Part shown: one piece after another, positions 1,702 through 19,006 of the stretch
How the letters are laid out: the number at the start of each line of letters is the position of its first letter
How positions within the stretch are numbered: position 1 is the stretch's first letter
Assembly: GCA_030587475.2 (NCBI GenBank)
Contig: JAUQYZ020000017.1
Span: 1-19,006 of the forward strand
Direction of reading: 5' to 3'
Source: Candidatus Sigynarchaeum calidifontis
Lineage (GTDB): Archaea; Asgardarchaeota; Lokiarchaeia; Sigyniarchaeales; Sigyniarchaeaceae
Length of the DNA stretch: 19,006 nt
The notes under the pieces: generated by a model
Told to the model about the DNA's origin: nothing
The model's input: the letters and a program-made list of their open reading frames with translations, nothing else
The model's database searches: none
Program-made: the position numbers and the translations under genes

Positions 1702-1822
1702 GCGTCACGATCTCCGCAGAAATCATCAGAAAAATGACATGTTGGACATAATATAATGAGGTAGGGGATACCGAATTCGTGATATGGGTTCTCGAAGAGC
1801 CAATGCCTCTCTGACGGGGCAA

Positions 1823-2098
1823 TTAAAGTTCCCGTTTATAGGCTTTCTTTCTTGGTAAAACGGAAAGGATGATTATGGTATATTCAGGTTGTAAATCGAA
1901 TATTGCTCGATAATCTCCCACTCTTAGGCGATAATAACTTTTGTATCCTTTCAATTTTTTGATGTCCAATTCAGGGGAGAATCCGTCTCTTAGCTTGCGC
2001 AATTGTTCGGTTATACGCTCGCGGGTTGAAGAATCAAGGAGCTGGAGTTCTTTTTCCGCATTCTTCTCGAGAAAGACCTTAAATTTCGTGGAGCTCAA
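1823..2098 (-). CDS. relE: RelE/ParE-family toxin (mRNA interferase)
   Basis: 91 aa basic protein with IKKLKGYKSYYRLRVGDYRAIF and a C-terminal PRKKAYK, typical RelE motifs. TTG start overlaps the upstream small ORF. Confidence 0.9.
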   Translation of the reverse strand: MSSTKFKVFLEKNAEKELQLLDSSTRERITEQLRKLRDGFSPELDIKKLKGYKSYYRLRVGDYRAIFDLQPEYTIIILSVLPRKKAYKREL

Positions 2099-2249
2099 GC
2101 TGTCCTTTCCTCTTCAAAGATTCATACCTTTCAATTGCTTTCTTTTCATCGTCATCTGGCTCAACGACCCCGATGAGGCGCGAGTCGATGATGGCCTCTA
2201 TTCGTTCGAGCATGGCTTTTATTTCTTGAAGAGGTTTGTCCTCCACCAT
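2079..2249 (-). CDS. Putative cognate antitoxin (RelB-like), 56 aa
   Basis: Below the ORF-track size cutoff. Hand translation: MVEDKPLQEIKAMLERIEAIIDSRLIGVVEPDDDEKKAIERYESLKRKGQLELHEI*. Small with an acidic patch, directly upstream of the toxin and overlapping it by 20 nt. Confidence 0.75.
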   Translation of the reverse strand: MVEDKPLQEIKAMLERIEAIIDSRLIGVVEPDDDEKKAIERYESLKRKGQLELHEI

Positions 2250-2365
2250 TTTCTATCAGCTCTGCAGTACACATGCGAACCTATTGATTTATATTTGCTG
2301 GGTAAAACCTTTCGGTTAATCACACTTCTGAAAGCGACTTAGTTTAATTATGATGCAGACTCCCT

Positions 2366-3565
2366 TCAGCGCTTGAAAGCATCGCTGCAGAACTTGAACG
2401 CGGGCAAGATGTTTGTCCCGCAACCCAGGACATGCGGCGAGATGGCGACGGCCGGATCGTCGGGGTTGTGGAACTCGTGTTCGATGCCGTGCGCGAGTAA
2501 TGTCTCGTGCAATTGCCGCGTCGGGGGGCACAGGCCAAACTCGTCCTTCGCGTCGACGTAGATGAAGACCGGTTTCCCCTTCAACGCGCCCGGGTGCTCG
2601 TTAACCATCTCGCTCAAGTCGAACTTGCGCCAGTTCGCGATCGCCGCGTCGCTGGCGCTGGTGATCTTCCCTGCATCGTCACGTTTTATTGAAGGTACCA
2701 GTGGCGTGTCCTTTGAATAGATCATATCGATCGTGTCGACGATGTCGCTCCACTCGTGCTCCCCTTGCTTTTTTGCATATCTTTTACCAAGGAGCCGCTC
2801 GTACAAGGGCGAGTACAGCTTCCAGTCGACCATGGTCCAGAGCAAGTTGCCCGGCGCGAGCGATGCGACCGCGCCGAACACGCCCGGGTACTTGATCCCG
2901 AGATACATCGCCCCGTACCCGCCCATGGACGCGCCAGACACCGCCCTGTGGCCCGGATCGGCGAGCGTCCGGTAGTTGCGATCCACGTGGGCGACCACGT
3001 CGCGGGCGATGTAGTCCGCGTAGTTGCCCGAGTGCGGCGAGTTCACGTAAAAGCTCCCTTTCACGTTCGGCCTGCCCGTGATATCCTTGCCCCCACCGAG
3101 CCGTGGGAGATGGAGGCTCCCGTCGGGCTGCACGAGGATGAACGGCTCGATCTCGCCCCTGGTGATGAGCTCATCGAGCATCTCGTAGGTGGGAATCTTG
3201 TCGAGGTTGAACTCGCGGGCCATGCGCGCGGGAATCGCGTCGAAGGGAAAAGGGGCCTGGTCGATCTCCCGCCGGGACGTTATCGTCCATGACTTGTTGT
3301 TGGACCCGTACCCGTGCAAGAAATAAATGACGGGGTACCGCTCGTTCGTTTTTTCGTGATAGCCAGGTGGCAAATATATCCGCAAATCCCTGTCCGCGGG
3401 GCTGTCGAGCGGGTTGTTGTCCAAGCTCGCGGCGTGGATCGTGTCGATGCGATACCGGTCAGCGGATTGTCGGAATTTCTCGATCTTTCTCTTGCTCGAT
3501 TTCAGCTTGACCAAGAACGCGATGAACCGGAGCGCGATTTCCAGTTTTTCCATGGCATCATCCAC
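2366..3565 (-). CDS. Alpha/beta-hydrolase, putative esterase (Fes/S-formylglutathione hydrolase/feruloyl esterase-like)
   Basis: IYLPPGY...YPVIYFLHGYG, nucleophile elbow GASMGG, and candidate catalytic Asp (DAKDEF) and His (SPHVLG). Confidence 0.88.
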   Translation of the reverse strand: MDDAMEKLEIALRFIAFLVKLKSSKRKIEKFRQSADRYRIDTIHAASLDNNPLDSPADRDLRIYLPPGYHEKTNERYPVIYFLHGYGSNNKSWTITSRREIDQAPFPFDAIPARMAREFNLDKIPTYEMLDELITRGEIEPFILVQPDGSLHLPRLGGGKDITGRPNVKGSFYVNSPHSGNYADYIARDVVAHVDRNYRTLADPGHRAVSGASMGGYGAMYLGIKYPGVFGAVASLAPGNLLWTMVDWKLYSPLYERLLGKRYAKKQGEHEWSDIVDTIDMIYSKDTPLVPSIKRDDAGKITSASDAAIANWRKFDLSEMVNEHPGALKGKPVFIYVDAKDEFGLCPPTRQLHETLLAHGIEHEFHNPDDPAVAISPHVLGCGTNILPAFKFCSDAFKR

Positions 3566-3592
3566 CCTTTTCGTTTTGTTTGGAAAAAAAGG

Positions 3593-5041
3593 TCATGCCG
3601 GAGGCACGGCCGAACGCTTCTTCGCGTGCAAGGCGTCGAGCTTCTCGCGGATTTCTTGCAATTTCTTCCCGTGTATCGGATACTTCCAGAGCGCGACCAG
3701 GCCAATGGCAAGCACGATGGCTGGATAGACCCCGATGAGGATGCGGAGGAGATTGACCTGATCGGGACCGACCGACCCGGGTCCGAACACGCTCCATCCA
3801 GCACCCGAGAACGTGAGCCCGACGACGAGGTAATTAGCGATCGTCGAGAGCCGAATGATGAATGTTATCACGCCGTAATATGCCCCCGACCGCCGTGTTC
3901 CGAGGTTGACCTCGTCCTCGTCGATGATCTCGGCGATGCACTGGTCGTAAAAATAGATGGAACCGCCGGTGCCGAATCCCACGAAAACCATGGCGACGAA
4001 GCCGGATTGCAGGTCCCAAGCCATCATCAAGACCAGCAGCGATCCCGCCCACCATGCGAGCGCGACGATCCCGACGTATCTGGCGCCTTTAACCTGGCGT
4101 ATCTTTGTCCAAACAGGCATCGTCACCGCGCCGACGATGAACGAGAAGAGGAGGAGGATACCGCTCATGACAGAATCATTCTTGTTTATGCCGAGCGCGT
4201 AGGTGGCAAAAAGAGGGAACATGCTCGGGATGATGCCGTTGCAGATCCAGTAGGCAAAACCGGCGATCAGGAATATCCGGAACGACTTGTTCCTGAACGT
4301 TTGCTTGACCGAAGCCCCAAAGCTCAAGGCAGATTCGCTGTCCCTGGAAAACTCCACGCGTTCCTTGACACCAAACTTGATCACGAGAGTGTAGATCACG
4401 ATAACGATGATCCCGGCAAGAAACCCGCTGAGGATGTACTGGCTAGCGGTATATGGAAGGCCTCTATCATTCGCGATGTCCTCGATGATGATCGAGGGCA
4501 TGACGAACGCGAGGACGAGCGCCACGACGACAAGCATGCTGCGTAAACGGCCGACCTCCGACCTGTCTTTCATCGAAAGAAACATCTCCGAAAACAAGGC
4601 GTTGTAATTCACGTTGAACAGCGAGTACACGCCGTCGAACATAAAAAGCACGCAAGTAAAGTACACGAATTGGATTATCTTGTCGCTTGGCGTGTTGCCG
4701 GGCGGAGGGGTGAATAATAATACCATCATGATGGCCAGCGGAATGGCCCCGGCGATCATCCACGGGCGCCGGCGACCAAGGCGCGATTTCGTGCGATCCG
4801 ACAAGTTGCCGATGAGATTGTCGTTGATCGCGTTCCAAAAGGACCAGATGATGAATCCGACCGAGATCCACCGAACATCGAGCCCGATGACCGTGAAATA
4901 ATACGTGAATATGAGGAACGAGAATGTCTGGTACGCGACGTTGTCACCGACCTCGCCGAGTGCGAAAAATCTCTTGGCTCGCTTCGGCATGTCGATTTCC
5001 TTGCTTGTATCACCGCGTGATTCGCCCATGTTTTGCACCAC
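3593..5041 (-). CDS. MFS transporter, glycoside-pentoside-hexuronide (MelB-like) family
   Basis: About 12 hydrophobic segments, WNAIND...IGNLSDRTKSRLGRRRPW motif and AEIIDEDE...GTRRSGAYYG. The start may be the ATG at 5029. Confidence 0.92.
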   Translation of the reverse strand: MVQNMGESRGDTSKEIDMPKRAKRFFALGEVGDNVAYQTFSFLIFTYYFTVIGLDVRWISVGFIIWSFWNAINDNLIGNLSDRTKSRLGRRRPWMIAGAIPLAIMMVLLFTPPPGNTPSDKIIQFVYFTCVLFMFDGVYSLFNVNYNALFSEMFLSMKDRSEVGRLRSMLVVVALVLAFVMPSIIIEDIANDRGLPYTASQYILSGFLAGIIVIVIYTLVIKFGVKERVEFSRDSESALSFGASVKQTFRNKSFRIFLIAGFAYWICNGIIPSMFPLFATYALGINKNDSVMSGILLLFSFIVGAVTMPVWTKIRQVKGARYVGIVALAWWAGSLLVLMMAWDLQSGFVAMVFVGFGTGGSIYFYDQCIAEIIDEDEVNLGTRRSGAYYGVITFIIRLSTIANYLVVGLTFSGAGWSVFGPGSVGPDQVNLLRILIGVYPAIVLAIGLVALWKYPIHGKKLQEIREKLDALHAKKRSAVPPA

Positions 5042-5349
5042 TTAGCCATTATCCCTCGCGCCTATTTTAATTACCCACACCAGTTCCACGGACGAAGGTG
5101 GAATGATCGCCGGATAGTTCAGGGGGAGGCAAATTATCGAACGGGTATCGAACAGCCCCTGATCCTCACGTGGACCGCGAATCCAAAAGGGCCTGGGAGA
5201 AAAATTTCGACGGCTGCCCGTTTTCCGCGGCCTGGTTTCGTTACTAGCCCCCGTGTCAAGAATGAACAAGGCAAACGAATGGCCATGATTGCGATTAATA
5301 TTTAAAGGATACCATAGATCAGTTTATCTAGCGCCTAGAAATGGGTTGA

Positions 5350-5847
5350 ATGAAGGTGGCGAGTAGCTTCAAGAAAGTGAAGGACGCTTTCGTGCGGTTT
5401 TTCGAAGCGATCGCCGCCTTTTTCAAGAACTTGTTCAAGAAAAGAAGTGACGACAAAATGGGAGAAAACCCGGATTTCGACGAGGATTTGGGACCGCCAG
5501 CAGAGGAACCCGCGGCACCCAAACCCGTTTCGAGCAAGACCCCCGCCGGCACTGCGCCGAGGTCGATCGCGTCGAAGACACCCGCCGCAAGTGGTGGTAA
5601 AGATGTCTCCGTTTATTTTCAATCAACCATCGGGCCAGGCGAGAAGAAACAGAAGCTGCTCGTGAATACCGGCAATCAAGTTGGCGCCATCAAGCAGACG
5701 GTTGGCAACATGTTCGGCTTGGACCCGAACGATTTCCATCTCTCGCATGGTGGTGTCACGTTGGACGAGGGAGCCCCCTTGAGCAATTACAACGTGAACG
5801 ACGGGGACACCTTGCTGCTCATCCCGGCAAGCACCGCGGGCATGTAG
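5350..5847 (+). CDS. Ubiquitin-like modifier with N-terminal amphipathic helix and disordered linker; C-terminus IPASTAG-M
   Basis: The C-terminal ~80 aa align by eye with ubiquitin (DFHLSHGGVTLDEGAPLSNYNVNDGDTLLLI vs [31 protein letters not shown]). First gene of the E1-E2-JAMM-RING operon. Confidence 0.88.
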   Translation: MKVASSFKKVKDAFVRFFEAIAAFFKNLFKKRSDDKMGENPDFDEDLGPPAEEPAAPKPVSSKTPAGTAPRSIASKTPAASGGKDVSVYFQSTIGPGEKKQKLLVNTGNQVGAIKQTVGNMFGLDPNDFHLSHGGVTLDEGAPLSNYNVNDGDTLLLIPASTAGM

Positions 5848-5869
5848 AATCTCTCCGATCATTGCGGGG

Positions 5870-5893
5870 AAAAAAGACTCTTGTCTTTTTTTT
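5870..5893 (+). terminator. Inverted repeat with T-run between the Ubl and E1 genes (possible terminator/attenuator)
   Basis: AAAAAAGAC-TCTT-GTCTTTTTT perfect 9-bp stem ending in a T8 tract. Confidence 0.45.
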
Positions 5894-5912
5894 ATTCAAA
5901 TCATGACGGAGA

Positions 5913-7142
5913 ATGACGAACGTGGATAAATCCGATTTCTTCAACACGGAGCTGACGGAAAAGGAACGGGAACTGTACAACAGGCAATTCCGGTACGAAG
6001 GGTGGAACCAGTCCATCCTCAAGCGAGCCAGGGTGCTCGTCGCCGGCGTCGGCGGGCTCGGGTGCGAGATCGCCAAGAACCTGGCCATGGTAGGCATCGG
6101 CCATATCGACCTGGTCGATCTCGATGTCATCGAACATTCGAACTTGAACCGCCAGTTCCTGTTCCTCGAGGCGAACATCGGGGCGCCGAAGGCGACCGTC
6201 GCCGCCGAGAAGCTGCGGGGGATCAACCCCACGATCGAGATCACGGGCCATCACTCTGCGCTCGAGCGGCTCGACCCGGACATCTACCGGCGGGCGGACG
6301 TGCTGGTCGGGGGGCTCGATTCCGTCCTGGCACGCCAAAACCTGAATGCCCAGGCCATCCGCTTCAGGAAACCGCTCGTCGACGGCGGCGTCGGCGGGTA
6401 CAATGGCCACGTCTACACGATCATGCCGTACGAGAACGCTTGTTACGAGTGCCAGCCACATCCATCCGGCCCGAGCGACGAGATGGCCGCGTGCACCGTC
6501 GTCGGCGTGCCCCGCAAGCGCGTGCATTGCGTTTTCAAGGGAAACATGCTATTTCAAGACACGTTCAAGCACGACCCCGACCCGAAAAAGCTCGATGACG
6601 TGGAATTCGTGCGGAAAGAGGCAAACCGGCTCGCCCGCGAGTATAATTTTCTCCCGGAATTTTCCACGGGGGATGTCGTGAAGGTCCTCGACCGCCACGA
6701 CCCGGGCCTCATCACGATCAACGCGGTCATCTCGGCAATCCAATCGCACGAGGTGATCAAGATCGTGAACTGGAAGGCCGGGAACAAGGCGCTGGGAGAA
6801 CCGATGAAAACGTACCTGATATTCAACGGCATGACCATGAAGTTCTATTATATCGAGAAACCTCGAAACCCGGCTTGCCCGCAATGCGGCGACAACGTCA
6901 AGCGCGTGGGCATCGAGCTTGCGAGCACCGATCCTTGCCAGAAAATCATCGACATGCTGGTGGCAATGGGATTTAAAACGAGCCCGGACATGGAGCCGGT
7001 GCTCACGATGAACGATTTCAAGGGCGTCCGGGTGCTCGACTCGGAAAAGTCCGTCGCGGAGAACGAGCTGCGAACCTACGACCTCATCACCGTGGCCGGC
7101 TTCGCGGACGGGGAAGTGTTTATTACCTTGAAGATAAAGTGA
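5913..7142 (+). CDS. Ubiquitin-like activating enzyme E1 (ThiF/UBA3-like, with catalytic Cys and probable C-terminal ubiquitin-fold domain)
   Basis: YNRQ, VAGVGGLGCE, DLDVIEHSNLNRQFLF, Zn pairs CYEC and CPQC, catalytic-Cys motif MAACTV, and an ~80 aa C-terminal domain ending EVFITLKIK. Confidence 0.95.
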   Translation: MTNVDKSDFFNTELTEKERELYNRQFRYEGWNQSILKRARVLVAGVGGLGCEIAKNLAMVGIGHIDLVDLDVIEHSNLNRQFLFLEANIGAPKATVAAEKLRGINPTIEITGHHSALERLDPDIYRRADVLVGGLDSVLARQNLNAQAIRFRKPLVDGGVGGYNGHVYTIMPYENACYECQPHPSGPSDEMAACTVVGVPRKRVHCVFKGNMLFQDTFKHDPDPKKLDDVEFVRKEANRLAREYNFLPEFSTGDVVKVLDRHDPGLITINAVISAIQSHEVIKIVNWKAGNKALGEPMKTYLIFNGMTMKFYYIEKPRNPACPQCGDNVKRVGIELASTDPCQKIIDMLVAMGFKTSPDMEPVLTMNDFKGVRVLDSEKSVAENELRTYDLITVAGFADGEVFITLKIK

Positions 7143-7195
7143 AACAATAATAAAAACCGACGCGATTCAAGAACAAAGACCAGAAGTGAAAAAAC

Positions 7196-7723
7196 ATGAG
7201 CTTGAGAACCACCAGGATCTCGCAAGATTTTGCAGCGTTGAAGAAAATGCTGAGCGAGGGAACCATCGTCCAGCTGAAAGGATTCGACAAGGATAGCAAG
7301 TCGATCGACCACCTTGCGGTGACGCTCGTCGGGCCAAAGGGAACGGCGTACCAAGGCGGCTTGTTCAAGCTGGAGATCAAGTTCCCGCCAGATTACCCCC
7401 AGCAACCACCCTTCGTGCGCCTGCATACCCCGATCTGGCATCCAAACTTTTGGCCGAAGCCATCCGAGTTTCCAGGCCAGCGGAACATCTGCCTGGCACT
7501 CGTCGACCCCTCGCTGGTCGGGACAAAAGGCGGGTGGAGCCCATCCAAGACCATCGTGACCGTCGTCCAGGCGATTATTGCCATGCTGAACACCAAGGGC
7601 CAGTACATCAACCCGACGGACGTGTTCAACAAGAAAGCAGCCGAGGAAATGCTTAGGGATCCGAAATCGTTTGACGAGAAGTGCAGGCAATTGACGAAGA
7701 AATACGCCACGGAAAAATGGTAA
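7196..7723 (+). CDS. Ubiquitin-conjugating enzyme E2 (UBC fold)
   Basis: GPKGTAYQGGLFKLEIKFPPDYPQQPPFVRLHTPIWHPN...ICL...WSPSKTIVTVVQAIIAML; HPN motif and catalytic Cys intact. Confidence 0.96.
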   Translation: MSLRTTRISQDFAALKKMLSEGTIVQLKGFDKDSKSIDHLAVTLVGPKGTAYQGGLFKLEIKFPPDYPQQPPFVRLHTPIWHPNFWPKPSEFPGQRNICLALVDPSLVGTKGGWSPSKTIVTVVQAIIAMLNTKGQYINPTDVFNKKAAEEMLRDPKSFDEKCRQLTKKYATEKW

Positions 7724-8574
7724 TGGTAATGGACATGGCAGAACAGCGAGACGGGGCTGGTAGCAAGGAGGATGCCCGGGAGCGCAAGCTCAAGGAAGAC
7801 TTGAAGCAAGAGCTGAAGGTCGAGCTTTTAAAGGAGATCTATGCCGAGCTGAAATCCGAGAAATCCGAGAAGGTCGACGTGGCAACGACGACGAAGGACA
7901 CGGTACTGCACATCAAGGAACACTTGCCCAAGATGGAAGTCCCTCCAGCAACACCGATTGCAGTGGCTGCTCCTTCAACGTCTTCCACTCCAGCCACGCC
8001 TTCCCCGCCTCAGGAACGCATCACGTTGACCGCGAAGGTGTTTCTCAAGATTGCCGCCCACGCGCTGAAATACGCTAACAACGGTATCCCCCGGGAGAAA
8101 TGGGTGGAGGTCATCGGCTTGCTTGCCGGAAAGCTCGACAACAACGGGGCCGTGCTGCACGTTGAGGACGCCTACCCGATGGGGCATGGAAATGCTGTTT
8201 ACGCCGAGATCAAGGAATACAAGAACTTTGTTCGTGCTTACAACGATTTGCGAGGACAAGGGCTCTTTGTTGCGGGTTGGTATCATTCTCATCCTGCGTA
8301 TGGCCTGTTCTTGAGCGACGAGGATATGGGCACGCAGGCCCGCTACCAGAAATTATGGGACAAGTCCATCGCCCTCGTCATCGACCCGTACCAGATCAAC
8401 GGCACCTCGTTCGGGTTCAACATCTTCAGAGCGAATTTAAAAACGAGGAAATGGTTCCCCGTGCCGTTTTCCTTCAAGAACGAGCTGGACACGAAAGTAA
8501 TCCCGGAACTGGTCGAATTCATCAATCCTATCGTGGATGGGAAGGCGCTTTTCATGGAATACGACCAGGGGTAG
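7723..8574 (+). CDS. JAMM/MPN+ metallo-isopeptidase (Rpn11/CSN5-like) with N-terminal extension
   Basis: EVIGLL and GWYHSHPAYGLFLSDED (E...HxH-x7-S-x2-D), then TQARYQ and ALVIDP. Start uncertain: in-frame ATGs at 7717, 7723, 7729 and 7735; 7723 overlaps the E2 stop (TAATG). Confidence 0.93.
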   Translation: MVMDMAEQRDGAGSKEDARERKLKEDLKQELKVELLKEIYAELKSEKSEKVDVATTTKDTVLHIKEHLPKMEVPPATPIAVAAPSTSSTPATPSPPQERITLTAKVFLKIAAHALKYANNGIPREKWVEVIGLLAGKLDNNGAVLHVEDAYPMGHGNAVYAEIKEYKNFVRAYNDLRGQGLFVAGWYHSHPAYGLFLSDEDMGTQARYQKLWDKSIALVIDPYQINGTSFGFNIFRANLKTRKWFPVPFSFKNELDTKVIPELVEFINPIVDGKALFMEYDQG

Positions 8575-8577
8575 AAC

Positions 8578-9714
8578 ATGGCACGTTTACGATGGTTCCA
8601 TTACTTGATCGTCCTTCTCATTTTCCTGGTTCTCGCAGTCCTGGCTGGCGTCCCCCTGGAACCCCCAGCAACGAACGATTTCTGGTCGTGGATGCTCGTC
8701 GGCGCCTGGACCATGCTCGGCATGAAGCTCGCCGACAGCGCCGCCTACCTGCGCTCGTTCAACTCGATGCAGAACCACGCGCTGTTCGTGTTCTGGACAA
8801 ACTTCGCCGCCCTCGTCTTCGGTGCATGGGGCAACTTCACGACCATCCCGTATCTCGCCGAGCCGGTCGTGGAAGTGCCCGCCGGCTGGATCGTGGTGAA
8901 CTGGTGGTCGCTGCTCTTTTCGGTCCCGTACTTCCTTTATGGAACCTACGCGATTCACGCGTGCTTCCGCCGGTACTTCTACGTGTACATCTTTGGAAAA
9001 TCGGTGAACTCCAAGAAATTCGGCGTCTTCGTCGTCGTGTTCGATGTCGTCTTTGAAGCATTGTACCTCGCGTTTTTATTTTTCTGGTTCGGCTCCGTGG
9101 ATGCCCCGCTCGACCTCGTCTCCCGGCACGTGGACCCGGCCGGGATCCTGTTCTTGCTCGTGTCCATCATCATCGCGGCCAGGTACGGGCGGTCGCCGTC
9201 GATCCCCGACATCAGCGCCCCGCTGCCCTCGCCCGTCCGGGCACGTCCCAGGCCGCAACCGGCCGCGCCGGAGCCCGTCCAGCGCGTTGCCCAGCCCGTT
9301 GCCCAGCCCGTTGCCCAGCCCGCACGGCCCGTCCAACCGGCCAGGAGCTGGGACGCGGGCGTGGCGCGGCGGGTGAGCGTGCGGGTGGCCGCGCCGGAGG
9401 CGGTCCGCGTCGAGCGGGTCAACATCGACGAGTTGCGCCCGAAAGGCAGCGTGCTCTCGAAGGAAGACTTCAAGTGCATTTTTTGCTTCAATTTATTCAA
9501 GAGCCCGGACGATGACAACCGGGGGGTCGTGATCTGCCCGTCATGCCGCCATCCGGCACACGCTGACGAGTTCCGGGAGTGGGCGCGGAATTCGAGCTTG
9601 TGCTCCCGCTGCGACGCCAAACTCCCCGAAAATTTCCGGAAAAGGCCGCGGATCGTGAGCGTGAAGGTGTACCTGGACGGGATGAAGCGTTTATCGAGCC
9701 AGATCAAGGGCTGA
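8578..9714 (+). CDS. Polytopic membrane protein (~6 TM) with Pro-rich linker and C-terminal RING-like zinc finger; putative E3 ligase
   Basis: Six hydrophobic segments in the first ~200 aa, then CIFC-x16-CPSCRHPAHADEFREW-x6-CSRC at 9475-9612 with the conserved RING Trp. Last gene of the Ubl-E1-E2-JAMM operon. Confidence 0.82.
   Translation: MARLRWFHYLIVLLIFLVLAVLAGVPLEPPATNDFWSWMLVGAWTMLGMKLADSAAYLRSFNSMQNHALFVFWTNFAALVFGAWGNFTTIPYLAEPVVEVPAGWIVVNWWSLLFSVPYFLYGTYAIHACFRRYFYVYIFGKSVNSKKFGVFVVVFDVVFEALYLAFLFFWFGSVDAPLDLVSRHVDPAGILFLLVSIIIAARYGRSPSIPDISAPLPSPVRARPRPQPAAPEPVQRVAQPVAQPVAQPARPVQPARSWDAGVARRVSVRVAAPEAVRVERVNIDELRPKGSVLSKEDFKCIFCFNLFKSPDDDNRGVVICPSCRHPAHADEFREWARNSSLCSRCDAKLPENFRKRPRIVSVKVYLDGMKRLSSQIKG
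9286..9322 (+). repeat. 12-bp tandem repeat x3 (GTTGCCCAGCCC) encoding VAQP repeats in the E3 linker
   Basis: Three perfect copies directly visible. Confidence 0.9.
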
Positions 9715-11448
9715 TCGGCACCAGATACCCGACTTGCCAGCTGTGCTCGCCGGGATGATCAATATCGTGTCCCCATTTTCCACGTGGTACACCTTGATGG
9801 CACGGTTCTCGTCCATGGTAATCCCGCCGTAGACCAGGTGAAAGTCGGGAGGGAAAAGGCCAAAAATGTTGCCCACCGTATGCTTCAAACTCTCGATTTG
9901 CACGTTTTTATCTATTTCCAACTCTATTTGCTTCTCTCCGGGGCCTATCGTAGCTTGGAAAAAAACTTTAATGGTTTCTGTCTTGGAAACAGGCGTCTTG
10001 CTCGTGATCGCGATGCCGGCGCTATTTTCGGGCGTTTTCGCCCGTGGGGTCGCGGGGGGCACGCCGGCCATGGCTCCTGGCTGGCCCGCGGGCGCCGGCT
10101 CGGGCGTGGACGTGGCCGGGCCAGCAGGTGCGGACGTGACGCTGCTGCCGGGCTCTGCGTCCTTCTTGGGCCTGATCGAGAACGCGAACGTCTTGGCGAG
10201 CTCGTCGTAGAAGCGCCAGAGCTGCAGCAGGCTGGTGGCCTTCAAGTAATCCCCGCGGCCGATATCCCGCCCGAGCTTTTCCATGAGCAAGTCGTCCGCC
10301 TCCCCTAGGCCGATTGTGTAGATCACGACGCCTTCCTTCGTGAGGAATTCCCTCGCGACCGGGATGGGGTTCACGGGTATGCCGCTGGCCTCGTCGCCCT
10401 TGTTCGGGTTCCCGTCGCTGAGGAGGATGATCATGGTCGGGTCGGGCTTGCCCGTGCGTGGATTGACAGGAAATTGCGCGATTTGCTCCGCCGCGATCTT
10501 CAGCGCCACGCTCATCGCGGTCAAGCCGACCGCTTTCTTGGTTTTCTCCGTGATGTAGTATGCTAGCGTGTTCAAGTTCAAGTCTCGCAGCTTCCCGCTG
10601 CATTGTATCACGGGGGACAAGACCCCGTTGGTGTCCTCCATCTCGAGCACCTCAACCTCGTCGCCGAACGCGATGACTTGCACGTTCTCGCCGAGGCCAC
10701 GCTTGGCCTTGAGGCTCAAGTAAAGCAGCGATGCAGCCGCCGCGCTCGCGATGCGTGAGACGGTCGCCCCGTCCTGGAACTGGTTAAAGAACTCCTCCAG
10801 GTGGGATGCCATGGCATACTCGCCCTTCAGATAATCGATGATGCTGCTAACATCTTGCACGACGAAGTCCTCGCTGAGCATGGATCCCGAAACGTCGATG
10901 CACAAGATCGTGTTGAACCCCATCTCCTTGGCGGGCACGAGGTCGAACAAGATCTCCATGCCCGAGCTGTCGACGACGGCGACATCCCCGTCGCCGATCG
11001 ACGGGTTCGTGTCGATGATTTTCAATCGCAGCGGGCAGATCTCGGCATCTTTCCACTCGAGCTCCATGCCCTTGAACACCGGGCGGCGCTTCAGCAATTT
11101 CTGGATGCCGCTCACGTGCTCGGACACCCAGACGATGGCAGATTCGATGGGCACCTTGCCTTGCGAGTCGACCGAGATTTGCAGTTCCGTGATGCCGCCC
11201 CGTGTCGCGATCTTCCGGATGTCGACATCGGGCGAGCCGCCCATCTCCAACGAGGCGATGATCTCCTCGTCGACCACCATGGTACCGGGCGAGCAATCGT
11301 CGTCCGACACGACTTGCATGGCTGTCTTGATGCGTCCATCATCGCTCGGGATCACGACGACGTCAAAATCCTCCAATTTTCGGGTCTCCATGTCCTGGCG
11401 GTTCAGCTTGGCTTGGCCGCCCATGTGTCCTCCATTGATGAGCTGCAT
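9691..11448 (-). CDS. Cdc48/p97 N-domain-like + VWA (MIDAS) + linker + C-terminal ubiquitin-like domain protein
   Basis: The N-terminus resembles the archaeal Cdc48 N domain (GQAKLNRQDMETRKLEDFDVVVI...PGTMVVDEEIIASLEM...VDIRK; LKRRPVFKGMEL...LRLKIIDTNP). VWA motifs LCIDVSGSM, VIAFGD, GLTAMSVAL, ILLSDG and IYTIGLG. The C-terminal Ubl (9736-9966) is 43/77 identical by hand count to the free Ubl. Confidence 0.85.
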   Translation of the reverse strand: MQLINGGHMGGQAKLNRQDMETRKLEDFDVVVIPSDDGRIKTAMQVVSDDDCSPGTMVVDEEIIASLEMGGSPDVDIRKIATRGGITELQISVDSQGKVPIESAIVWVSEHVSGIQKLLKRRPVFKGMELEWKDAEICPLRLKIIDTNPSIGDGDVAVVDSSGMEILFDLVPAKEMGFNTILCIDVSGSMLSEDFVVQDVSSIIDYLKGEYAMASHLEEFFNQFQDGATVSRIASAAAASLLYLSLKAKRGLGENVQVIAFGDEVEVLEMEDTNGVLSPVIQCSGKLRDLNLNTLAYYITEKTKKAVGLTAMSVALKIAAEQIAQFPVNPRTGKPDPTMIILLSDGNPNKGDEASGIPVNPIPVAREFLTKEGVVIYTIGLGEADDLLMEKLGRDIGRGDYLKATSLLQLWRFYDELAKTFAFSIRPKKDAEPGSSVTSAPAGPATSTPEPAPAGQPGAMAGVPPATPRAKTPENSAGIAITSKTPVSKTETIKVFFQATIGPGEKQIELEIDKNVQIESLKHTVGNIFGLFPPDFHLVYGGITMDENRAIKVYHVENGDTILIIPASTAGKSGIWCRSALDLAR

Positions 11449-11454
11449 GGTCGA

Positions 11455-12573
11455 TCACGTGGGATGCTTGGTGCGAATCGAGTCCGAAGGCGCCTTCTCC
11501 CGTATCGCCCGCTTCTCCAGGTCGCCCCGGTACTTGTCGAGCGCGTCCCGCTCTTTCCGCAATTTCTCGTATTCCTTCTGGAGGCCATCCCGGTCTCGGT
11601 TGAATTTCTCCCGCTCCCGGTCGAGGTTATCGCGATCCCGCTGGATGTTATTTATTTCCTTCTGGGCGTCCTTCAATTCCCGGTTCTTCCGCGCGATCTC
11701 GTCATCCAAGGCATCGCGTTTTCTCGAGAGCGCGGGTATCTCGTCGTTGATACGCCGCAACTCGTCCCGTGCCTTGTCTTTTCGCCTCTCCAGGTCGTCG
11801 ATCTCGTTCTTGAGATGCTTCACCTTGTCCTGGTACCTTTCTATCTCGTTATCGAGGTCCCGCTTTTTTCTCTCGAGCTGCTTCTCGGCCTCGTCGACCC
11901 GCCTCGCCCGGCGATCGAGATCTTCCTCCATGTCACGGAGCTTGCGCTTGGCATCCTCGAGTTGCTTGCTGTTCCTCGCGAGGTCTTGCTTTTCCTTCTC
12001 GATCTGGCGCTGGACATCGGCGAGGTCGTCCTTGAGCTGCTTGTTGCGGTTGGCGAGTGCCTCGTTCTCGGCCGCGAGATTTTTTTTCCACTTCTCGAGC
12101 CCCTCTTGCTCGTTGCGCAGCACCCGGATGCGCCCCTCGCGCTCCTCCTTCTCGCTCTTGTATTTTTGCACGTCGTCGATCAGCTTGTTAACTTCTTGAT
12201 CGAGTCTTTTTTTATCTTCCCGGAGGTCCTCGATATCCTTTTCCATGATGCGCGATGCTTGTCTCTTCCGCTCGAGCTCGCGTTCCTCGTTCGCGATGAG
12301 CTTGCGCACGCCGCCGAGGTCGTTGGTGGCCTTCTCTTTCTCCTTGAGCAAGGCCTTGATCTCGTCCTCCTTTTCCTTCCGGCTGGCTTCCAGCTGCGCG
12401 ATGACATTCTTGTGGTCCTCGATGCGCTTCAAGATCTTCTCCCATTCCCGCCGCTCGCGTTCTAGCTTTGCACGCTCCTCTTCCATCCGGCGAGTCGCTT
12501 CATCTGGCTCTACAGCGTCGCCGGGTGTCTTGCTGGAGACTTGAAACTTCGGAGGGGGCTTGTTTGACATCAT
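11455..12573 (-). CDS. Long coiled-coil protein, unknown function
   Basis: About 340 aa of nearly uninterrupted E/K/R/D/L-rich heptads, no TM and no globular domain. Ends 6 nt before the VWA-Ubl gene. Start at ATG 12573 or 12570, or GTG 12576. Confidence 0.85.
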   Translation of the reverse strand: MMSNKPPPKFQVSSKTPGDAVEPDEATRRMEEERAKLERERREWEKILKRIEDHKNVIAQLEASRKEKEDEIKALLKEKEKATNDLGGVRKLIANEERELERKRQASRIMEKDIEDLREDKKRLDQEVNKLIDDVQKYKSEKEEREGRIRVLRNEQEGLEKWKKNLAAENEALANRNKQLKDDLADVQRQIEKEKQDLARNSKQLEDAKRKLRDMEEDLDRRARRVDEAEKQLERKKRDLDNEIERYQDKVKHLKNEIDDLERRKDKARDELRRINDEIPALSRKRDALDDEIARKNRELKDAQKEINNIQRDRDNLDREREKFNRDRDGLQKEYEKLRKERDALDKYRGDLEKRAIREKAPSDSIRTKHPT

Positions 12574-12735
12574 CACACCTTCATGAAACGCGTGAATGGC
12601 CTAGCCGGAATCCGGGACATCGGCGGGAATCGAGATCCTTAGTTCTTGTAGGTTTTTAGCCTAATAAATCATGCTCGCTTGCCGCGATGACTTTCAAGAC
12701 GAATGGAATGGTGGGGAAATAAAAAAAAAACAAGT

Positions 12736-13983
12736 CTATTCCATCGTTAGCCCGTAATAGATGCCGATCACGAAGAATGATGCCAGCGAATTTGCGAGAA
12801 ACTGCGGGTTGAAGAAATTACGCAGCAACAAGATCGACATGAAAGTTACGAGCAAGGAAACCAGGATGATGATCGCCTTTTTCCGCAAGATGCCCGTGGA
12901 CTGCCTCGCGACCTTGATGTAGGTGAGGACAATGTTCACCCCGACCAGGCCAAGGGCGACGACCCACACGTAAATGATCACGCCGAGCACGTCTTTCAAG
13001 CCCGGCGCGACCAGTAACACGAAAGCGAACACGATGATGAGCACCTCGGTGATCAACAGGAAGAAAGTCAGGTACGGGATTTTTTTGTTCTGGATATCCT
13101 TCTCGATCGTGTTGCTCATGAACATGAGGCTGCTACCGAGACATATGAATGTTAAAAATGTCAGCACGTTAGTCGTGAGAATCCCACCGAGCACCCATGT
13201 CGGCATGGCATTGAACGCCATGATGCCCGACCAGTCAAACGCAGGATCGAGGGCGCTCCAAAATGCCGAGAATTGCCAGGCGAACATGCCGATGCCACCC
13301 GCGATCAAGCCCCACGCGTAGTTCATGTACGAGTGCGCTTTCCCCTGTCGATCGGGATTTTTCCGCTCCTTCATTGCCTTGTACAAGAGCATGAACCCGA
13401 AGATGAAAAACATCATGTAAACGAGATTGAAAAAGACCGTCTCCATGGCATCGACGACGGGATTCCCCGTTCTCCACTTGAAAGAATACTGGGTGAGGGA
13501 GTCCAGCTCGTTCACGATCACGATGTAGAACACCATGGTGTAGAGCGGCTTCCCCTCCTTGTCGACCGTCGTGAAGTTCTCCATGCCCCAGTCCATCTTG
13601 AAATGCTGGTACGTGAGGTTGGTCTCAATGATGGACGTCTGGTGGGCCCAGGTTTTTTTCGGCACGAATTGCGACGAGTTCCAGTTCGAATTCAAGCCCT
13701 TGACCATCTCGGTCTCGTTGACGGCGTAGACCGACACCTTCTGTGTCGACCGGATCACCATGACATTCGTATCCGGCGTCAGCGTTATCCTCACTGGCGG
13801 GCCCGGCGGTTTCCCGTCCCACGTTTCGGCCAGGCGCTGCACGACGATGGCGGAGTTGGTCTGGCCTTTCGGGGCCAGATCCCCCCGGATCTCGTCCAAA
13901 GCTGCGACATTTTGCGCGATAAAAAAGAAAACAATGAAACCCGTGCATAGAATGAGCGCACGGGACCGGTTCGTGATTTTCAT
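12736..13983 (-). CDS. Membrane protein: signal peptide, ~150 aa extracellular domain, seven TM helices, no cytoplasmic output domain
   Basis: N-terminal hydrophobic stretch ending in VAA, a soluble beta-rich region with several NxS/T sequons (NET, NSS, NLT, NFT), then seven hydrophobic segments to the C-terminus. Confidence 0.75.
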   Translation of the reverse strand: MKITNRSRALILCTGFIVFFFIAQNVAALDEIRGDLAPKGQTNSAIVVQRLAETWDGKPPGPPVRITLTPDTNVMVIRSTQKVSVYAVNETEMVKGLNSNWNSSQFVPKKTWAHQTSIIETNLTYQHFKMDWGMENFTTVDKEGKPLYTMVFYIVIVNELDSLTQYSFKWRTGNPVVDAMETVFFNLVYMMFFIFGFMLLYKAMKERKNPDRQGKAHSYMNYAWGLIAGGIGMFAWQFSAFWSALDPAFDWSGIMAFNAMPTWVLGGILTTNVLTFLTFICLGSSLMFMSNTIEKDIQNKKIPYLTFFLLITEVLIIVFAFVLLVAPGLKDVLGVIIYVWVVALGLVGVNIVLTYIKVARQSTGILRKKAIIILVSLLVTFMSILLLRNFFNPQFLANSLASFFVIGIYYGLTME

Positions 13984-14201
13984 GTCGTTCCCTTTTCTTT
14001 GCCGTTATGTCTGGTTCATCAATTGAGAAATCGGTAGATAATTGTGAAAACGGGTAAATAAAAAGTCGCGCGATTCTCATTCGTTGGGATGGCGATGAGC
14101 CGCATCGTCTATCGAAGGAATTTACGAGGTATTTCCAAACTTAATTAAATCTCGCTTCACGGGTAACAACACAATATATTCCTAGATTCGAGCTGCAACC
14201 T

Positions 14202-14669
14202 ATGTCTTCCTCCACAGAGGCTATCACTTACCGGGTGAACATTTCGAGCAAAAACCGGAACGTGCAAATCACGATCGAGCCGCAAAAATTCATGAACGCG
14301 TTCCTCGGCAAAAAAATCGGGGATACCGTGAACGGCGGCCTCTTCGGATACGAGGGGTACGAGTTCACGATAACGGGCGGTTGTGACACGGCCGGTTTTC
14401 CGATGCGGAAGGACGTGCAAGGCGGCGTCAAGAAACGAATACTCGTCGGAAAGCCGAGTACCGGCATCAAGGCCAAGCGTTTCAACGAAGGTGATCGCAT
14501 CCGCATCCTCGTGCGAGGCAACACGGTCACCGACCAGATCGTGATGGTGAATTGCGTGGTATCGAAGGAAGGCAAGGTGAAACTCTTCGTGCCCAAGGAG
14601 GGCGATGCCGCCGCGCCCGCGGCCGAGGGTGACGAGAAAGACAAGGGCAAGAAAAAGAAAGAGAAATAA
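14202..14669 (+). CDS. rps6e: 30S ribosomal protein eS6
   Basis: FLGKKIGDTVNG, GYEFTITGGCDTAGFPMRKDVQG and VRGN motifs of S6e. Confidence 0.96.
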   Translation: MSSSTEAITYRVNISSKNRNVQITIEPQKFMNAFLGKKIGDTVNGGLFGYEGYEFTITGGCDTAGFPMRKDVQGGVKKRILVGKPSTGIKAKRFNEGDRIRILVRGNTVTDQIVMVNCVVSKEGKVKLFVPKEGDAAAPAAEGDEKDKGKKKKEK

Positions 14670-14685
14670 TAAAGGCGAATGACCC

Positions 14686-14868
14686 ATGGTAAAGAAACAA
14701 GTTTGCTCGTTTTGCCGGAATGAGATAGAATTTGGGCGAGGAACGATGCGCATCCTGAACGACGGCACGATCTTGGTTTTTTGCAGTGTCAAATGCAAGA
14801 CAGCAATGATAGAGCATAAAAAGAACCCGCGCAAGACGAAATGGACGCGCATCTACGGAACGGACTGA
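14686..14868 (+). CDS. rpl24e: 50S ribosomal protein eL24
   Basis: CSFC...GRGTMRILNDGTILVFCSVKC...KNPRKTKWT. Confidence 0.97.
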   Translation: MVKKQVCSFCRNEIEFGRGTMRILNDGTILVFCSVKCKTAMIEHKKNPRKTKWTRIYGTD

Positions 14869-14966
14869 ATTTTTCTCGTTATCCCCTTGTCTTCTAACAA
14901 ATGCGAGGTGCCCCGCCCTTTGCGAGGTCTTGACTTTCTGGCTTTGACAAGTTAAGTTAAGATAAA

Positions 14967-15749
14967 TTAAACGAACAAACGCCCGCCCGTCACGAGCAAC
15001 GACTGGCCAGTCATGTAATTGCTGTCGTCAGACGCCAGGAAGAATGCCACGCCCGCGACGTCGTCGGGCAGCCCCACGGGCTTGTGCTTGAAACATGGCT
15101 GCTCCCACTCGTTGGCCGATGCGAGATCCTCGACCGACGCCATGCCGTAGATCGGCGTCTTGATCACCCCGGGACAAATGCAGTTAACGGCGATGCGATA
15201 GCTGCCAAGCTCGGCCGCGAGCGTCTGCGTCAGGCTCACCACGCCGAACTTGGACGCAGAGTACGCGCCGAATAGCGCTCGCCCCCGCTTGCCCCGTTGC
15301 GACGACATGTTGATGATCTTCCCGCGCAGCATCCCGTCTGGTACTTCGCGTTTCATCATGCGCTTTGCGAAATATTTGCACATGAGGAAGACCGAGCGCA
15401 AGTTAACCGCCATGACCTTGTCCCAGTCCTCCTCCTTGGTCGAAATGACCCTGGCCATCGGGCCGCCGATACCTGCATTATTGACCAGCACGTCGAGCAC
15501 CGGGAACGCCGCGTAGTATTTCTCGACCATCTGTTGCACTTGCTCGCTGTTCGTCACGTCGGCGACCAGCACCAGGCTCTTCCGTCCAAGCGCCTCGATT
15601 TCCCGCGCGGTCGCCTCGGCCGCTTCCACCTTGATGTCGTTCACCGCCACGTCCGCACCTTCTCTCGCGTAACGCAAGGCGATAGCCTTGCCGATGCCCG
15701 ATCCCGCCCCTGTTATGAGCGTCGATTTCCCGTCTAGCCGATGTTCCAT
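14967..15749 (-). CDS. Short-chain dehydrogenase/reductase (classical SDR)
   Basis: TGAGSGIG, NNAG and YSASK catalytic motif, plus the C-terminal YMTGQSLLVTGG. Confidence 0.95.
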   Translation of the reverse strand: MEHRLDGKSTLITGAGSGIGKAIALRYAREGADVAVNDIKVEAAEATAREIEALGRKSLVLVADVTNSEQVQQMVEKYYAAFPVLDVLVNNAGIGGPMARVISTKEEDWDKVMAVNLRSVFLMCKYFAKRMMKREVPDGMLRGKIINMSSQRGKRGRALFGAYSASKFGVVSLTQTLAAELGSYRIAVNCICPGVIKTPIYGMASVEDLASANEWEQPCFKHKPVGLPDDVAGVAFFLASDDSNYMTGQSLLVTGGRLFV

Positions 15750-15926
15750 GCAATTTCACCCGTAGCTATGTTGGGTCAAGCTTTGAAATACCTATACATT
15801 ATGTCTTTGATGGCCTTTTTATATCGTGTTTCCAAGCCAAGGATGGATCGCGCGTGATGCCGGCTAACTAGGCAGGTATCGATGCAATCTAGATGTGAGA
15901 TAGGTGCTAAATGCACCGAGAATGCT

Positions 15927-16580
15927 TCATAAGGTGTGGATCAAGATGGCGCGGATCAGCTCGCGGGTCGTCTCGTCGTCTTCCGTCGTCTCGGTCTTGA
16001 GCACCGCCTTGAGATCCTCGATGGCCTCGAGCACGTCCCCCATCTCCTTCTGGATCGACTTCGTGTTGTCGGGGAGACGCCCGTCCCATTTCGCGATGTA
16101 AGCATCGACGGCCTTGGTTGCGGCATCCTTGTCCAGCGTCAAATCGAGTTCCTTGATCCACAGCTCGACCTCTCGCCTTGCAGCATTTATCGACCCCGAT
16201 GCGTGAACCGCGTTGACCCCTTTAGCTATGCCGTACTTGCCACGGAGGCAACCCTTCACGCGCTTGGCGTCTTCGACGAATCGCGGGCCGATCAGATCGC
16301 GCATGGCGCCCACGATGCCGTTTCCCTCGACGACCAGGACGAGCACGCCGACGGGGACGGTCATGATGGCCATCAAGCCTTGGAAGTACGGCTGGCCCTC
16401 GTGTTCCGAGAAATGTCGCTTGGCGAGATCCAGGGTGACTGGCGCCTGGGCGAAGGCGATTATCGACGAGCCAGGTAGTTTTTTTATGGCTTTCAGCACG
16501 TTCACGCCGATCTGGCGGCGCAGCACGCCATCAGGCTTCACGAGCACGAGCGTGCGCTCGATCTTGGTGTCGTGGCTCAT
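15927..16580 (-). CDS. ndk: Nucleoside diphosphate kinase-family protein with C-terminal helical extension
   Basis: ERTLVLVKPDGV, LRGKYG and NAVHASGS (phospho-His). True start is likely the ATG at 16580 (MSHDTKIERT), since the longer ORF would overlap infB. Confidence 0.88.
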   Translation of the reverse strand: MSHDTKIERTLVLVKPDGVLRRQIGVNVLKAIKKLPGSSIIAFAQAPVTLDLAKRHFSEHEGQPYFQGLMAIMTVPVGVLVLVVEGNGIVGAMRDLIGPRFVEDAKRVKGCLRGKYGIAKGVNAVHASGSINAARREVELWIKELDLTLDKDAATKAVDAYIAKWDGRLPDNTKSIQKEMGDVLEAIEDLKAVLKTETTEDDETTRELIRAILIHTL

Positions 16581-16667
16581 GAGATGTCCCTCGAAACCGT
16601 GGTTTGCTAGACCTCGCCCTTCGCGAGATTTATCATTTGCCGCGCCTTCTAGCACCAGTGATAGCCC

Positions 16668-18476: not shown

Positions 18477-18537
18477 ACCGGGCATGAATAACGGGTAACG
18501 AAACAAATAAGGAAAACAAAGCAAGAAAAAAGATTCC

Positions 18538-19006
18538 TTACGTTTTCTTGACCTTCATGCCGAACGTGCCGACGAGATCCTTCGTGTCCTTGATGTGATC
18601 CTTGAGCGTGAGTGGTTCCTCGGTCGGCTGCGTTTCGGAATATTCCGACGCCTCCTTCTTGAGAAACTCGATCGCCAGCACGACGCCGTTTTCAACGAGA
18701 ACGCGGGGCGAGTAACCGTCCGCGAAAAACACGCCCTCGGGTAGCGAGCCGATCGGCTCGAGCGTGCGTTCGACCTTCTTCTTGCCAAGGAACACTTGTT
18801 CTTTTACCGAGATGCTATAAGCCGCGCTCCCGATGATGACCATTTCCCTGATAAACCCGGCGGGAACCTTCAAGTTGCTGAGGATGCCCAGCACGCGATC
18901 AACGCTGACGTCCGCGCCGAGAGCCGCGGCTGGCGCTACAGGCGCGGGAGCGGGGGCTGCCGCGGGCGCGGAACGAGCCACCGGCGCGGGAGCGGGGCGC
19001 GCTGCT
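18538..19006 (-). CDS. Hypothetical protein, C-terminal part (Pro/Ala-rich linker followed by a globular domain); 5' end outside the window
   Basis: The frame stays open from the window edge to the TAA at 18538 and reads as a plausible protein. No family recognised. Confidence 0.7.
   Translation of the reverse strand, partial: AARPAPAPVARSAPAAAPAPAPVAPAAALGADVSVDRVLGILSNLKVPAGFIREMVIIGSAAYSISVKEQVFLGKKKVERTLEPIGSLPEGVFFADGYSPRVLVENGVVLAIEFLKKEASEYSETQPTEEPLTLKDHIKDTKDLVGTFGMKVKKT

Follow-up and report, generated by a model that had tools for sequence, protein, structure and literature searches.

We analysed a window of 19,006 nucleotides (nt) from the lokiarchaeal genome of Candidatus Sigynarchaeum calidifontis (assembly GCA_030587475.2, contig JAUQYZ020000017.1, positions 1-19,006, forward strand; genome labelled G000, 5.0 Mb, 89% complete), which carries at 5350-12573 seven genes that very probably form a dedicated, membrane-localised second pathway for conjugation of a ubiquitin-like modifier (Ubl). 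A first-pass annotation of this DNA had described a plus-strand series of genes for the Ubl, an activating enzyme (E1), a conjugating enzyme (E2), a JAMM protease and a membrane RING protein, converging on minus-strand genes for a Cdc48N-like/VWA/Ubl fusion and a coiled-coil (CC) protein. All seven open reading frames (ORFs) and this layout were found as described and, as had also been stated, the window contains no ESCRT or proteasome genes; Cdc48 is likewise absent from it. A TATA-like box (5301-5306, plus strand), identical in two congener loci, is the putative promoter of the Ubl gene. A three-codon upstream ORF (5341-5349) ends immediately before the Ubl start, and in a congener a comparable tiny ORF overlaps the TTG start of its Ubl.

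The Ubl (5350-5847, plus strand; 165 amino acids, aa) consists of an amphipathic helix, an acidic and Pro-containing tail, and a beta-grasp core matching PF00240 above the cut-off, and it ends in Ala-Gly164 plus one residue. Its closest named homologue, from Ca. Sigynarchaeum springense, is 97% identical. The core was modelled as a confident beta-grasp (predicted local distance difference test score, pLDDT, 92), whose nearest listed structural neighbours are Caldiarchaeum subterraneum ubiquitin (CsUb; top Foldseek match, template-modelling score 0.82), ISG15, and ubiquitin. The C-terminal Gly is invariant in 29/29 alignment rows, and an Ala-Gly end in place of di-Gly was found in all 114 stand-alone Ubls and in 120/120 database homologues; Lys99 and Lys115 of the core are invariant as well. 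The N-terminal helix (5350-5445, plus strand) has a hydrophobic moment of 0.71, which none of 800 sampled N-termini reached, and its codons 2-36 differ from those of a congener mostly at third positions and without indels. Thus, the part of the earlier proposal of a membrane-binding modifier that stands is a real and strong helix, but it is restricted to Sigynarchaeum-like sequences (only five of the best 120 Ubl homologues) and is not a general property; most homologues begin at the equivalent of Met37 (5458), which is a second possible start of the Ubl. The helix may add membrane affinity in the Sigynarchaeum-like lineage, and it lies outside the core design of the system.

The E1 (5913-7142, plus strand; 409 aa) is a single-subunit ThiF protein with a C-terminal extension, in which the GxGxxG ATP motif at residue 45 and the catalytic Cys194 are both invariant among homologues. 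Its best PDB match was UBA3 (E 4e-44), whereas UBA5 reached only E 2e-12. In a quick maximum-likelihood tree, with support from the Shimodaira-Hasegawa-like approximate likelihood ratio test (SH-aLRT) and groups named from four Pfam scans, the operon E1s formed one group (94) apart from the other Asgard E1s, including those of the canonical Asgard cascade. This group divides into a Loki/Hel/Sif/Borr half and a Heimdall/Hod half, a division along the Asgard classes that points to vertical inheritance from an ancestor deep within Asgard archaea. The Asgard E1 group containing the operon E1s (98) was separate from UBA3 (99), UBA2 (97), and UBA1 (99). Direct UBA3 ancestry was rejected: UBA3 was the top PDB match, yet the operon E1s did not group with it in this quick tree. 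The E1 position that selects modifier residue 72 is Arg in UBA3 and Gln in UBA1. The operon E1 has Tyr168 there, as do 26/26 aligned operon E1s, while other Asgard E1s mostly have Gln; residue 72 of the Ubl is Ala, Ser, Val, or His. This pattern is consistent with a dedicated E1-Ubl pair without proving it, and a complex prediction for the two proteins, scoring 0.23 against a mark of 0.32, weighs neither way.

The E2 (7196-7723, plus strand; 175 aa; UQ_con) has its HPN motif at residue 82 and the catalytic Cys at 99, with a spacing between the two that is identical in 56/56 homologues. Two family-specific inserts, an invariant aromatic one immediately before the Cys and another behind it, mark a place where a substrate peptide could bind. 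The JAMM/MPN+ metalloprotease (7723-8574, plus strand; JAB), a candidate maturase and deconjugase, carries a helical N-terminal extension and the motif HSH-x7-S-x2-D at residue 188; its zinc motif is intact in 54/54 homologues. The candidate ligase (E3; 8578-9714, plus strand; 378 aa) combines a six-helix membrane domain, a disordered linker, and a RING variant, as judged from alignment and model. The variant has the ligands C300, C303, C320, C323, H328, E331, C342, and C345, together with W335. In the model (pLDDT 83) six helices are seen, and the RING domain matches RING/U-box folds. The N-terminus and the helix 4-5 loop are positively charged and the loops after helices 1, 3, and 5 are acidic, which places the RING on the cytoplasmic side. 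The membrane domain showed no above-background match in the PDB or Atlas outside its own family, which is not proof of a new fold; its resemblance to HRD1 (Z 7.4, root-mean-square deviation 3.6, 113 aligned residues, 9% identity) equals that to unrelated bundles.

Conservation of the locus was examined in 77 loci fetched by a match to the Ubl core. The order Ubl-E1-E2-JAMM-RING is retained in 51 of them, and 47 of these 51 also have the CC gene; many of the remaining loci are short or broken at contig ends, and a few are separate Ubl copies. The CC gene usually lies upstream of and divergent from the Ubl. The complete set of seven genes occurs in two family-level relatives, where CC and VWA-Ubl are oriented divergently to the Ubl; in one relative the pair of CC and VWA-Ubl is separated from the operon, and the congener G001 shares the convergent layout. 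Because the layouts differ in this way, the convergent arrangement in the window is a local rearrangement; of the synteny that the first-pass annotation proposed to check, the five core genes and CC hold across loci and the convergence does not. Flanking genes are stable within families, and the recurrent neighbours of the 77 loci include no recognised UEV/ESCRT gene. The Ubl core and the E2 are conserved at about 70% and 72%, respectively, across Lokiarchaeia. In 44 loci there is a membrane-anchored Ubl copy without the Gly (L041:10272-11836 and 43 others); in one Loki family this copy and a winged-helix regulator sit between two Ubl copies. At three further places (L076:9902-11035, G230:C6, and G300:C341), a RING paralogue of about 225 aa without most of the membrane domain comes directly after a second Ubl copy.

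Profile searches of 301 Asgard genomes matched the Ubl in 122, the RING protein in 118, and both in 114; the genome numbers here and below are given as counts without a test, since relatives are not independent. Ubl-carrying lineages include Hel-, Sif-, and Borrarchaeota, Heimdallarchaeaceae, and Hodarchaeales. None of the 76 genomes of one large Asgard family had a profile match; we suspect without confirmation that this family is Thorarchaeia, which are described as lacking ubiquitin (PMC9192718). Among 61 close relatives, the CC gene was detected in 44 of the 46 Ubl-positive and none of the 15 Ubl-negative genomes, in agreement with the earlier assignment of this gene to the system, and it is a dedicated member of the pathway. 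Five Ubl-negative genomes hold only an E2 paralogue (41-45% identical); three of them are single-contig assemblies (63, 92, and 93% complete), so that the unit was lost as a whole and is dispensable in some lineages. Ca. Lokiarchaeum ossiferum carries the operon (NEF87_002992-002996). In one of four RNA library runs for this organism a single contig spans Ubl through RING and ends near the ends of the operon, and no contig of the four runs covers the CC-Ubl intergenic stretch; these runs come from one study and are available as contigs only, so that depth cannot rank the genes and a single transcript is not demonstrated.

The first-pass annotation had proposed a distinct pathway with its own non-di-Gly modifier, E1, E2, JAMM, and membrane RING, and the system is indeed separate from the canonical Asgard cascade. 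Besides the operon, G000 encodes other ubiquitin-family proteins and, on contigs C61 and C192, two further E1s; each of these contigs carries its own di-Gly-type ubiquitin. Thus, a dependence of the operon on canonical di-Gly ubiquitin was not borne out, as the di-Gly ubiquitins of the genome share contigs with other E1s. One Helarchaeote and one Borrarchaeum genome similarly have a separate di-Gly ubiquitin cluster at another locus; that of the Helarchaeote includes a small RING and is next to ESCRT-like genes, and the E1s and Ubls of the operon and of the di-Gly clusters fall in different tree groups. On C61, the TQAGG-type di-Gly ubiquitin gene (G000:C61:5975-6260; L001) is broken by a 30-nt insert with an in-frame stop, composed of a 25-nt hairpin and a 5-nt duplication, which occurs once in the genome; the gene is intact in G001, and the interruption may be genuine or may stem from the assembly. 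About 1.4 kb from this ubiquitin lies an E1 with tandem adenylation domains in a UBA1-like layout (G000:C61:1613-4555), which has a database relative of 800 aa (P0230) and falls among the Asgard E1s in the tree, away from UBA1. Two clusters of Freyarchaeia and Hodarchaeales (L207 and L208) have Ubl-E1-E2-JAMM genes near Vps22-like genes, with another di-Gly ubiquitin family and an unannotated 260-280-aa gene upstream in each.

The two halves of the locus had been linked by a shared Ubl paralogue and a shared SKTP motif, and both links were confirmed. The two Ubl cores are identical at 43/81 residues and both terminate in PASTAG, and four of the 12 SKTP occurrences in a rough gene set of G000 (about 1.49 million residues) lie at the locus (Poisson P ~5e-9). 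SKTP is the visible form of a broader motif, hydrophobic-x-x-K-[T/I/V/K/A]-P. In the Ubl tail it occurs as twin KTP motifs (5536-5583, plus strand) whose Lys63 and Lys76 are candidate chain-acceptor residues; homologous tails contain about two copies, and K-x-P was present in 216/217 of them. In the CC protein (11455-12573, minus strand), the candidate main substrate or scaffold, KTP lies at the N-terminal end (12523-12531), where Lys and Pro alone are invariant, and K-x-P at the C-terminal end (11461-11469), where the motif is frequently repeated. Motif counts in Ubl tails, CC N-ends, and CC C-ends were 96, 84, and 87, while shuffled sequences averaged 0.7, 2.7, and 2.5; the equally disordered RING linker had none in 51 sequences. 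When we used anchors that fix neither residue, the Lys was found in 205/207, 21/21, and 88/88 cases and the Thr in 87, 76, and 80%, being replaced in 13-24% of cases. A near-invariant Lys beside a variable Thr is as would be expected of an acceptor lysine, and a Thr-Pro kinase site was disfavoured because the Thr varies while the Lys stays constant. Across G000, SKTP is not enriched (12 occurrences versus 12-16 in shuffles), and looser patterns are enriched slightly at most, so that the motif yielded no broader set of candidate substrates. Twin motifs are retained in Ubl tails of Heimdallarchaeaceae and Hodarchaeales. The CC gene was not found at the loci of these two groups; a basic low-complexity protein of 216-255 aa with 11-14 K-x-P sites is encoded near the operon at Heimdall-type loci (L153:5195-5854, L167:4843-5493, and L169:4129-4809; Heimdallarchaeia) and may replace the coiled coil there. 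In SUMO conjugation the E2 reads consensus lysines, and chains form on the N-terminal tail (PMC12687455); by this precedent, we infer that the motif lysines act as acceptors.

The seventh gene (9691-11448, minus strand) encodes a Cdc48N-like barrel (Pfam match below the cut-off), a VWA domain with an intact DxSxS motif, a linker with two KTP motifs, and a C-terminal Ubl ending in PASTAG (Gly571) and a 14-residue tail, whose coding sequence overlaps the 3' end of the opposite-strand RING gene by 24 nt (9691-9714). No useful match to the whole fusion was found among PDB sequences. A related Cdc48N-VWA protein occurs in 56 of the 61 relatives, and a copy fused to the Ubl was detected in close relatives alone. 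The eight complete VWA-Ubl fusions all keep the terminal Gly (followed by tails of 0-14 residues) and the linker motifs. One of them still carries the acidic leader of the Ubl gene, so that an entire Ubl gene was captured. G000 has an unfused Cdc48N-VWA paralogue (G000:C178:798-2096); members of its family occur widely in Asgard archaea, in Lokiarchaeia mostly as a single copy, and have no PDB sequence relative. Borrarchaeum has the Ubl fused to a HerA-like ATPase; further fusion partners are a zinc-ribbon protein, a Roadblock-like domain (below the Pfam cut-off), and an unassigned Helarchaeote domain. The large VWA-Ubl protein, which had been presented as a part of the system, is therefore not a general feature; it is restricted to close relatives and is one among several interchangeable fusions. 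Nearly all fusions terminate in Gly, the exception being one zinc-ribbon copy that ends in Glu. In a Ubl tree of only 85 alignment columns, the VWA, HerA, and zinc-ribbon fusions form three supported groups, so that Ubl fusions arose independently at least three times. Retention of the Gly after fusion, despite a drifting tail, suggests that the fusions are processed and ligated as cargo.

From these observations, we propose that the pathway acts on the cytoplasmic side of the membrane and chiefly on its own components. The JAMM protease would lay bare Ala-Gly by trimming the Ubl and its fusions, and the E1, probably as a homodimer, would activate the Ubl on Cys194 and pass it to Cys99 of the E2. 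The six-helix RING protein would hold the charged E2 at the membrane, where the Gly would be ligated to the Lys within a hydrophobic-x-x-K-[T/I/V]-P motif. Such motifs in the Ubl tail would give chains and branches, and those at both ends of the CC protein cross-links, so that a reversible covalent scaffold would result, to which proteins ending in a Ubl, in this window Cdc48N-VWA, would be attached as cargo. We consider the case for this full scheme, in which conjugation onto motif lysines builds a reversible membrane scaffold carrying fused cargo, to be evenly balanced; a covalent scaffold had been suggested before, and the motif analysis strengthens the idea, which is still reached by inference. 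More tentatively, and with some doubt, the system may be an ancient Asgard lattice under the membrane, reversibly polymerised from Ubl and a coiled-coil rod through consensus lysines and loaded with cargo, which could be any protein whose gene has gained the Ubl at its 3' end, as happened repeatedly. Several points weigh against the scaffold. Conjugation itself is a prediction from sequence, as is the activation of a modifier in which Ala replaces the first Gly, and the RING has Glu331 instead of Cys as its sixth ligand and no Arg following the last Cys pair. An invariant Lys is also compatible with non-covalent docking by the motif or with a different modification of the Lys, the many loci with a Gly-less anchored Ubl imply that non-covalent Ubl binding also matters, and the HerA-like and one other fusion have no motif in their linkers. 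Moreover, several Loki genomes, two of them single-contig, gave no match to the system, so that any scaffold is dispensable, and kinship among the genomes means that the counts overstate independence.

ERAD (endoplasmic-reticulum-associated degradation) ligases combine a multi-pass membrane domain with a cytoplasmic RING, and the RING protein has this layout. The pathway could accordingly serve membrane-protein quality control, in which the RING would select damaged membrane proteins, the Ubl would mark them for extraction by Cdc48 and for the proteasome, and the CC protein would be an adaptor. A weak likeness to HRD1 (RING E 0.05; membrane part as given above) and the Cdc48N-like barrel point the same way, but that Z score is at the background level for helical bundles, Cdc48 and proteasome-ATPase genes are not conserved neighbours in the 77 loci, and a proteasome-beta-like gene flanks only eight of them. 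As this reading also leaves the repeated cargo-Ubl fusions unexplained, and as the conserved Lys motif is limited to proteins of the system itself, we regard it as unlikely. Short linear motifs in disordered tails, where the Lys motif sits, are usually docking sites. KTP might thus gather CC, Ubl, and fusions at the E2/E3 by docking (or another modification) for regulatory mono-modification of substrates elsewhere, and the common Gly-less anchored Ubl neighbour would suit this, as would chains built on the invariant core residues Lys99 and Lys115. The constancy of the Lys beside a varying Thr speaks against a kinase site, and the repeats at the CC ends and the 11-14 Heimdall copies fit multiple acceptors, though they fit avidity too; on balance we judge docking quite unlikely.

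Patchy loss and lineage-specific partners such as the HerA-like ATPase would also be compatible with an antiviral or conflict system resembling Cap2 of CBASS (cyclic-oligonucleotide-based antiphage signalling system), Bil, or Bub, in which the Ubl or Ubl-fused effectors would be ligated to virus proteins at the membrane, and bacterial Ubls with varied N-terminal domains do exist (bioRxiv 2024.11.21.623966). High conservation, an E1 tree that follows the Asgard classes, and stable flanks argue otherwise; PADLOC returned only generic E1 and coiled-coil matches, and no relative was found on viral contigs. We therefore hold a defence role to be very unlikely. In yeast, a membrane RING can join ubiquitin to phosphatidylethanolamine, and the single Gly, the membrane E3, and the coiled-coil partner resemble the Atg8 system. 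Ligation of the Ubl to a lipid amino head group is nevertheless highly improbable, as the E1 is much nearer to UBA3, UBA2, and UBA1 than to Atg7, the E2 is of the standard HPN type, and the Lys motif would have no explanation.

Asgard archaea are close relatives of eukaryotes. With three modifier families and separate E1s in single genomes, they would already have had parallel, mutually selective Ubl pathways, and Hodarchaeales, the proposed sisters of eukaryotes, have the present one. Its candidate multi-pass membrane RING ligase belongs to a class that had not turned up in the 2017 archaeal survey (PMC5654768). If the scaffold proposal is true, ubiquitin chemistry would here serve construction and protein placement, not signalling or degradation. 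The pathway is directly testable, with lysines named by the motif, a substrate by CC, and cargo by the fusions, and with L. ossiferum as a carrier of the operon.

Outside the seven genes, 12736-13983 encodes a 415-aa multi-pass membrane protein without a Pfam or NCBIfam match, which has a 30% identical paralogue on contig C158 and is not a conserved operon neighbour. The flanks (1-5041 and 14202-18476) look ordinary; they include an esterase (Pfam) and genes that we take to encode UvrB, a RelE/RelB-like pair, an MFS transporter, ribosomal proteins S6e and L24e, an SDR, NDK, and IF5B.

Among known systems, bacterial Ubls with diverse N-terminal domains (bioRxiv 2024.11.21.623966,.623953) share with the fusions a C-terminal beta-grasp that follows varied domains and is encoded beside E1, E2, and peptidase. 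Bub uses oxyester intermediates and an E1 without a catalytic Cys (same sources), whereas the E1 and E2 Cys of the operon are both invariant, the RING is membrane-bound, and inheritance is apparently vertical. The operon also differs from CBASS Cap2, Bil, and Bub in having separate, Cys-type E1 and E2 and none of their system-specific components. No eukaryotic orthologue of the pathway was found. The likeness to SUMO lies in a disordered N-terminal modifier tail with candidate acceptor lysines, a candidate consensus, and extra E2 loops near the Cys; without di-Gly, with a single-subunit E1 outside the UBA2 group, another consensus, and a membrane E3, the operon would work like SUMO without being its orthologue. 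UFM1 ends in a single Gly with Ile-Pro-x4-Gly spacing, the same as in the Ubl, and its ligase is also membrane-associated, but the operon E1 is not of the UBA5 type and its E2 is a standard HPN enzyme, not UFC1-like. Ufm1 homologues are reported from Asgard archaea (PMC12962969). The Ufm1 family PF03671 had no match in G000 and none above the cut-off in 151 Asgard genomes, its seven weak matches all being in families without the Ala-Gly Ubl. Orthology to UFM1 was rejected on this basis; Ufm1 was also absent from the 50 best structural matches of either search, which alone would not exclude it.

The Asgard Ub-ESCRT cascade has di-Gly ubiquitin as its modifier, a small RING, and UEV-Vps23 as a target (PMC9192718; bioRxiv 2023.07.25.550441). 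The two share enzyme classes and organisms, but the operon lies at distinct loci and has no di-Gly, no small soluble RING, and no UEV/ESCRT linkage. A ubiquitin region apart from ESCRT in Lokiarchaeota, noted by Hatano 2022 (PMC9192718), may be the present operon. Hennell James et al. 2017 (PMC5654768) classed archaeal ubiquitin clusters by E1 and E2 trees into clusters I and II, including the C. subterraneum Ub-E1-E2-srfp-Rpn11 operon, and according to that paper only small RING proteins were known from archaea. The E1, E2, and JAMM orthologues of Lokiarchaeote CR_4 are OLS16230-16232, while the CR_4 Ubl is annotated as hypothetical. As the E1 OLS16232.1 is listed in Supplementary Table 2B of that survey, the core E1-E2-JAMM cluster had already been seen, and the suggestion that the system might be undescribed does not hold for this core. 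Those clusters and the operon have in common a ubiquitin-fold modifier, a Cys-type E1, an HPN E2, a RING, and a JAMM maturase in one cluster. In the passages of the survey, figures not covered, there is no mention of an Ala-Gly end, a Lys motif, a six-helix RING, CC, or fusions, and a literature search, with most subscription journals outside its reach, returned nothing on any of these features. The operon thus stands apart from the clusters of PMC5654768, as covered in those passages, by Ala-Gly instead of Gly-Gly, an acidic tail with Lys motifs, the six-helix RING, a dedicated CC protein, and cargo-Ubl fusions. Taking these comparisons together, the core of the pathway is partly known, and its logic of substrate motif and cargo fusion is new.

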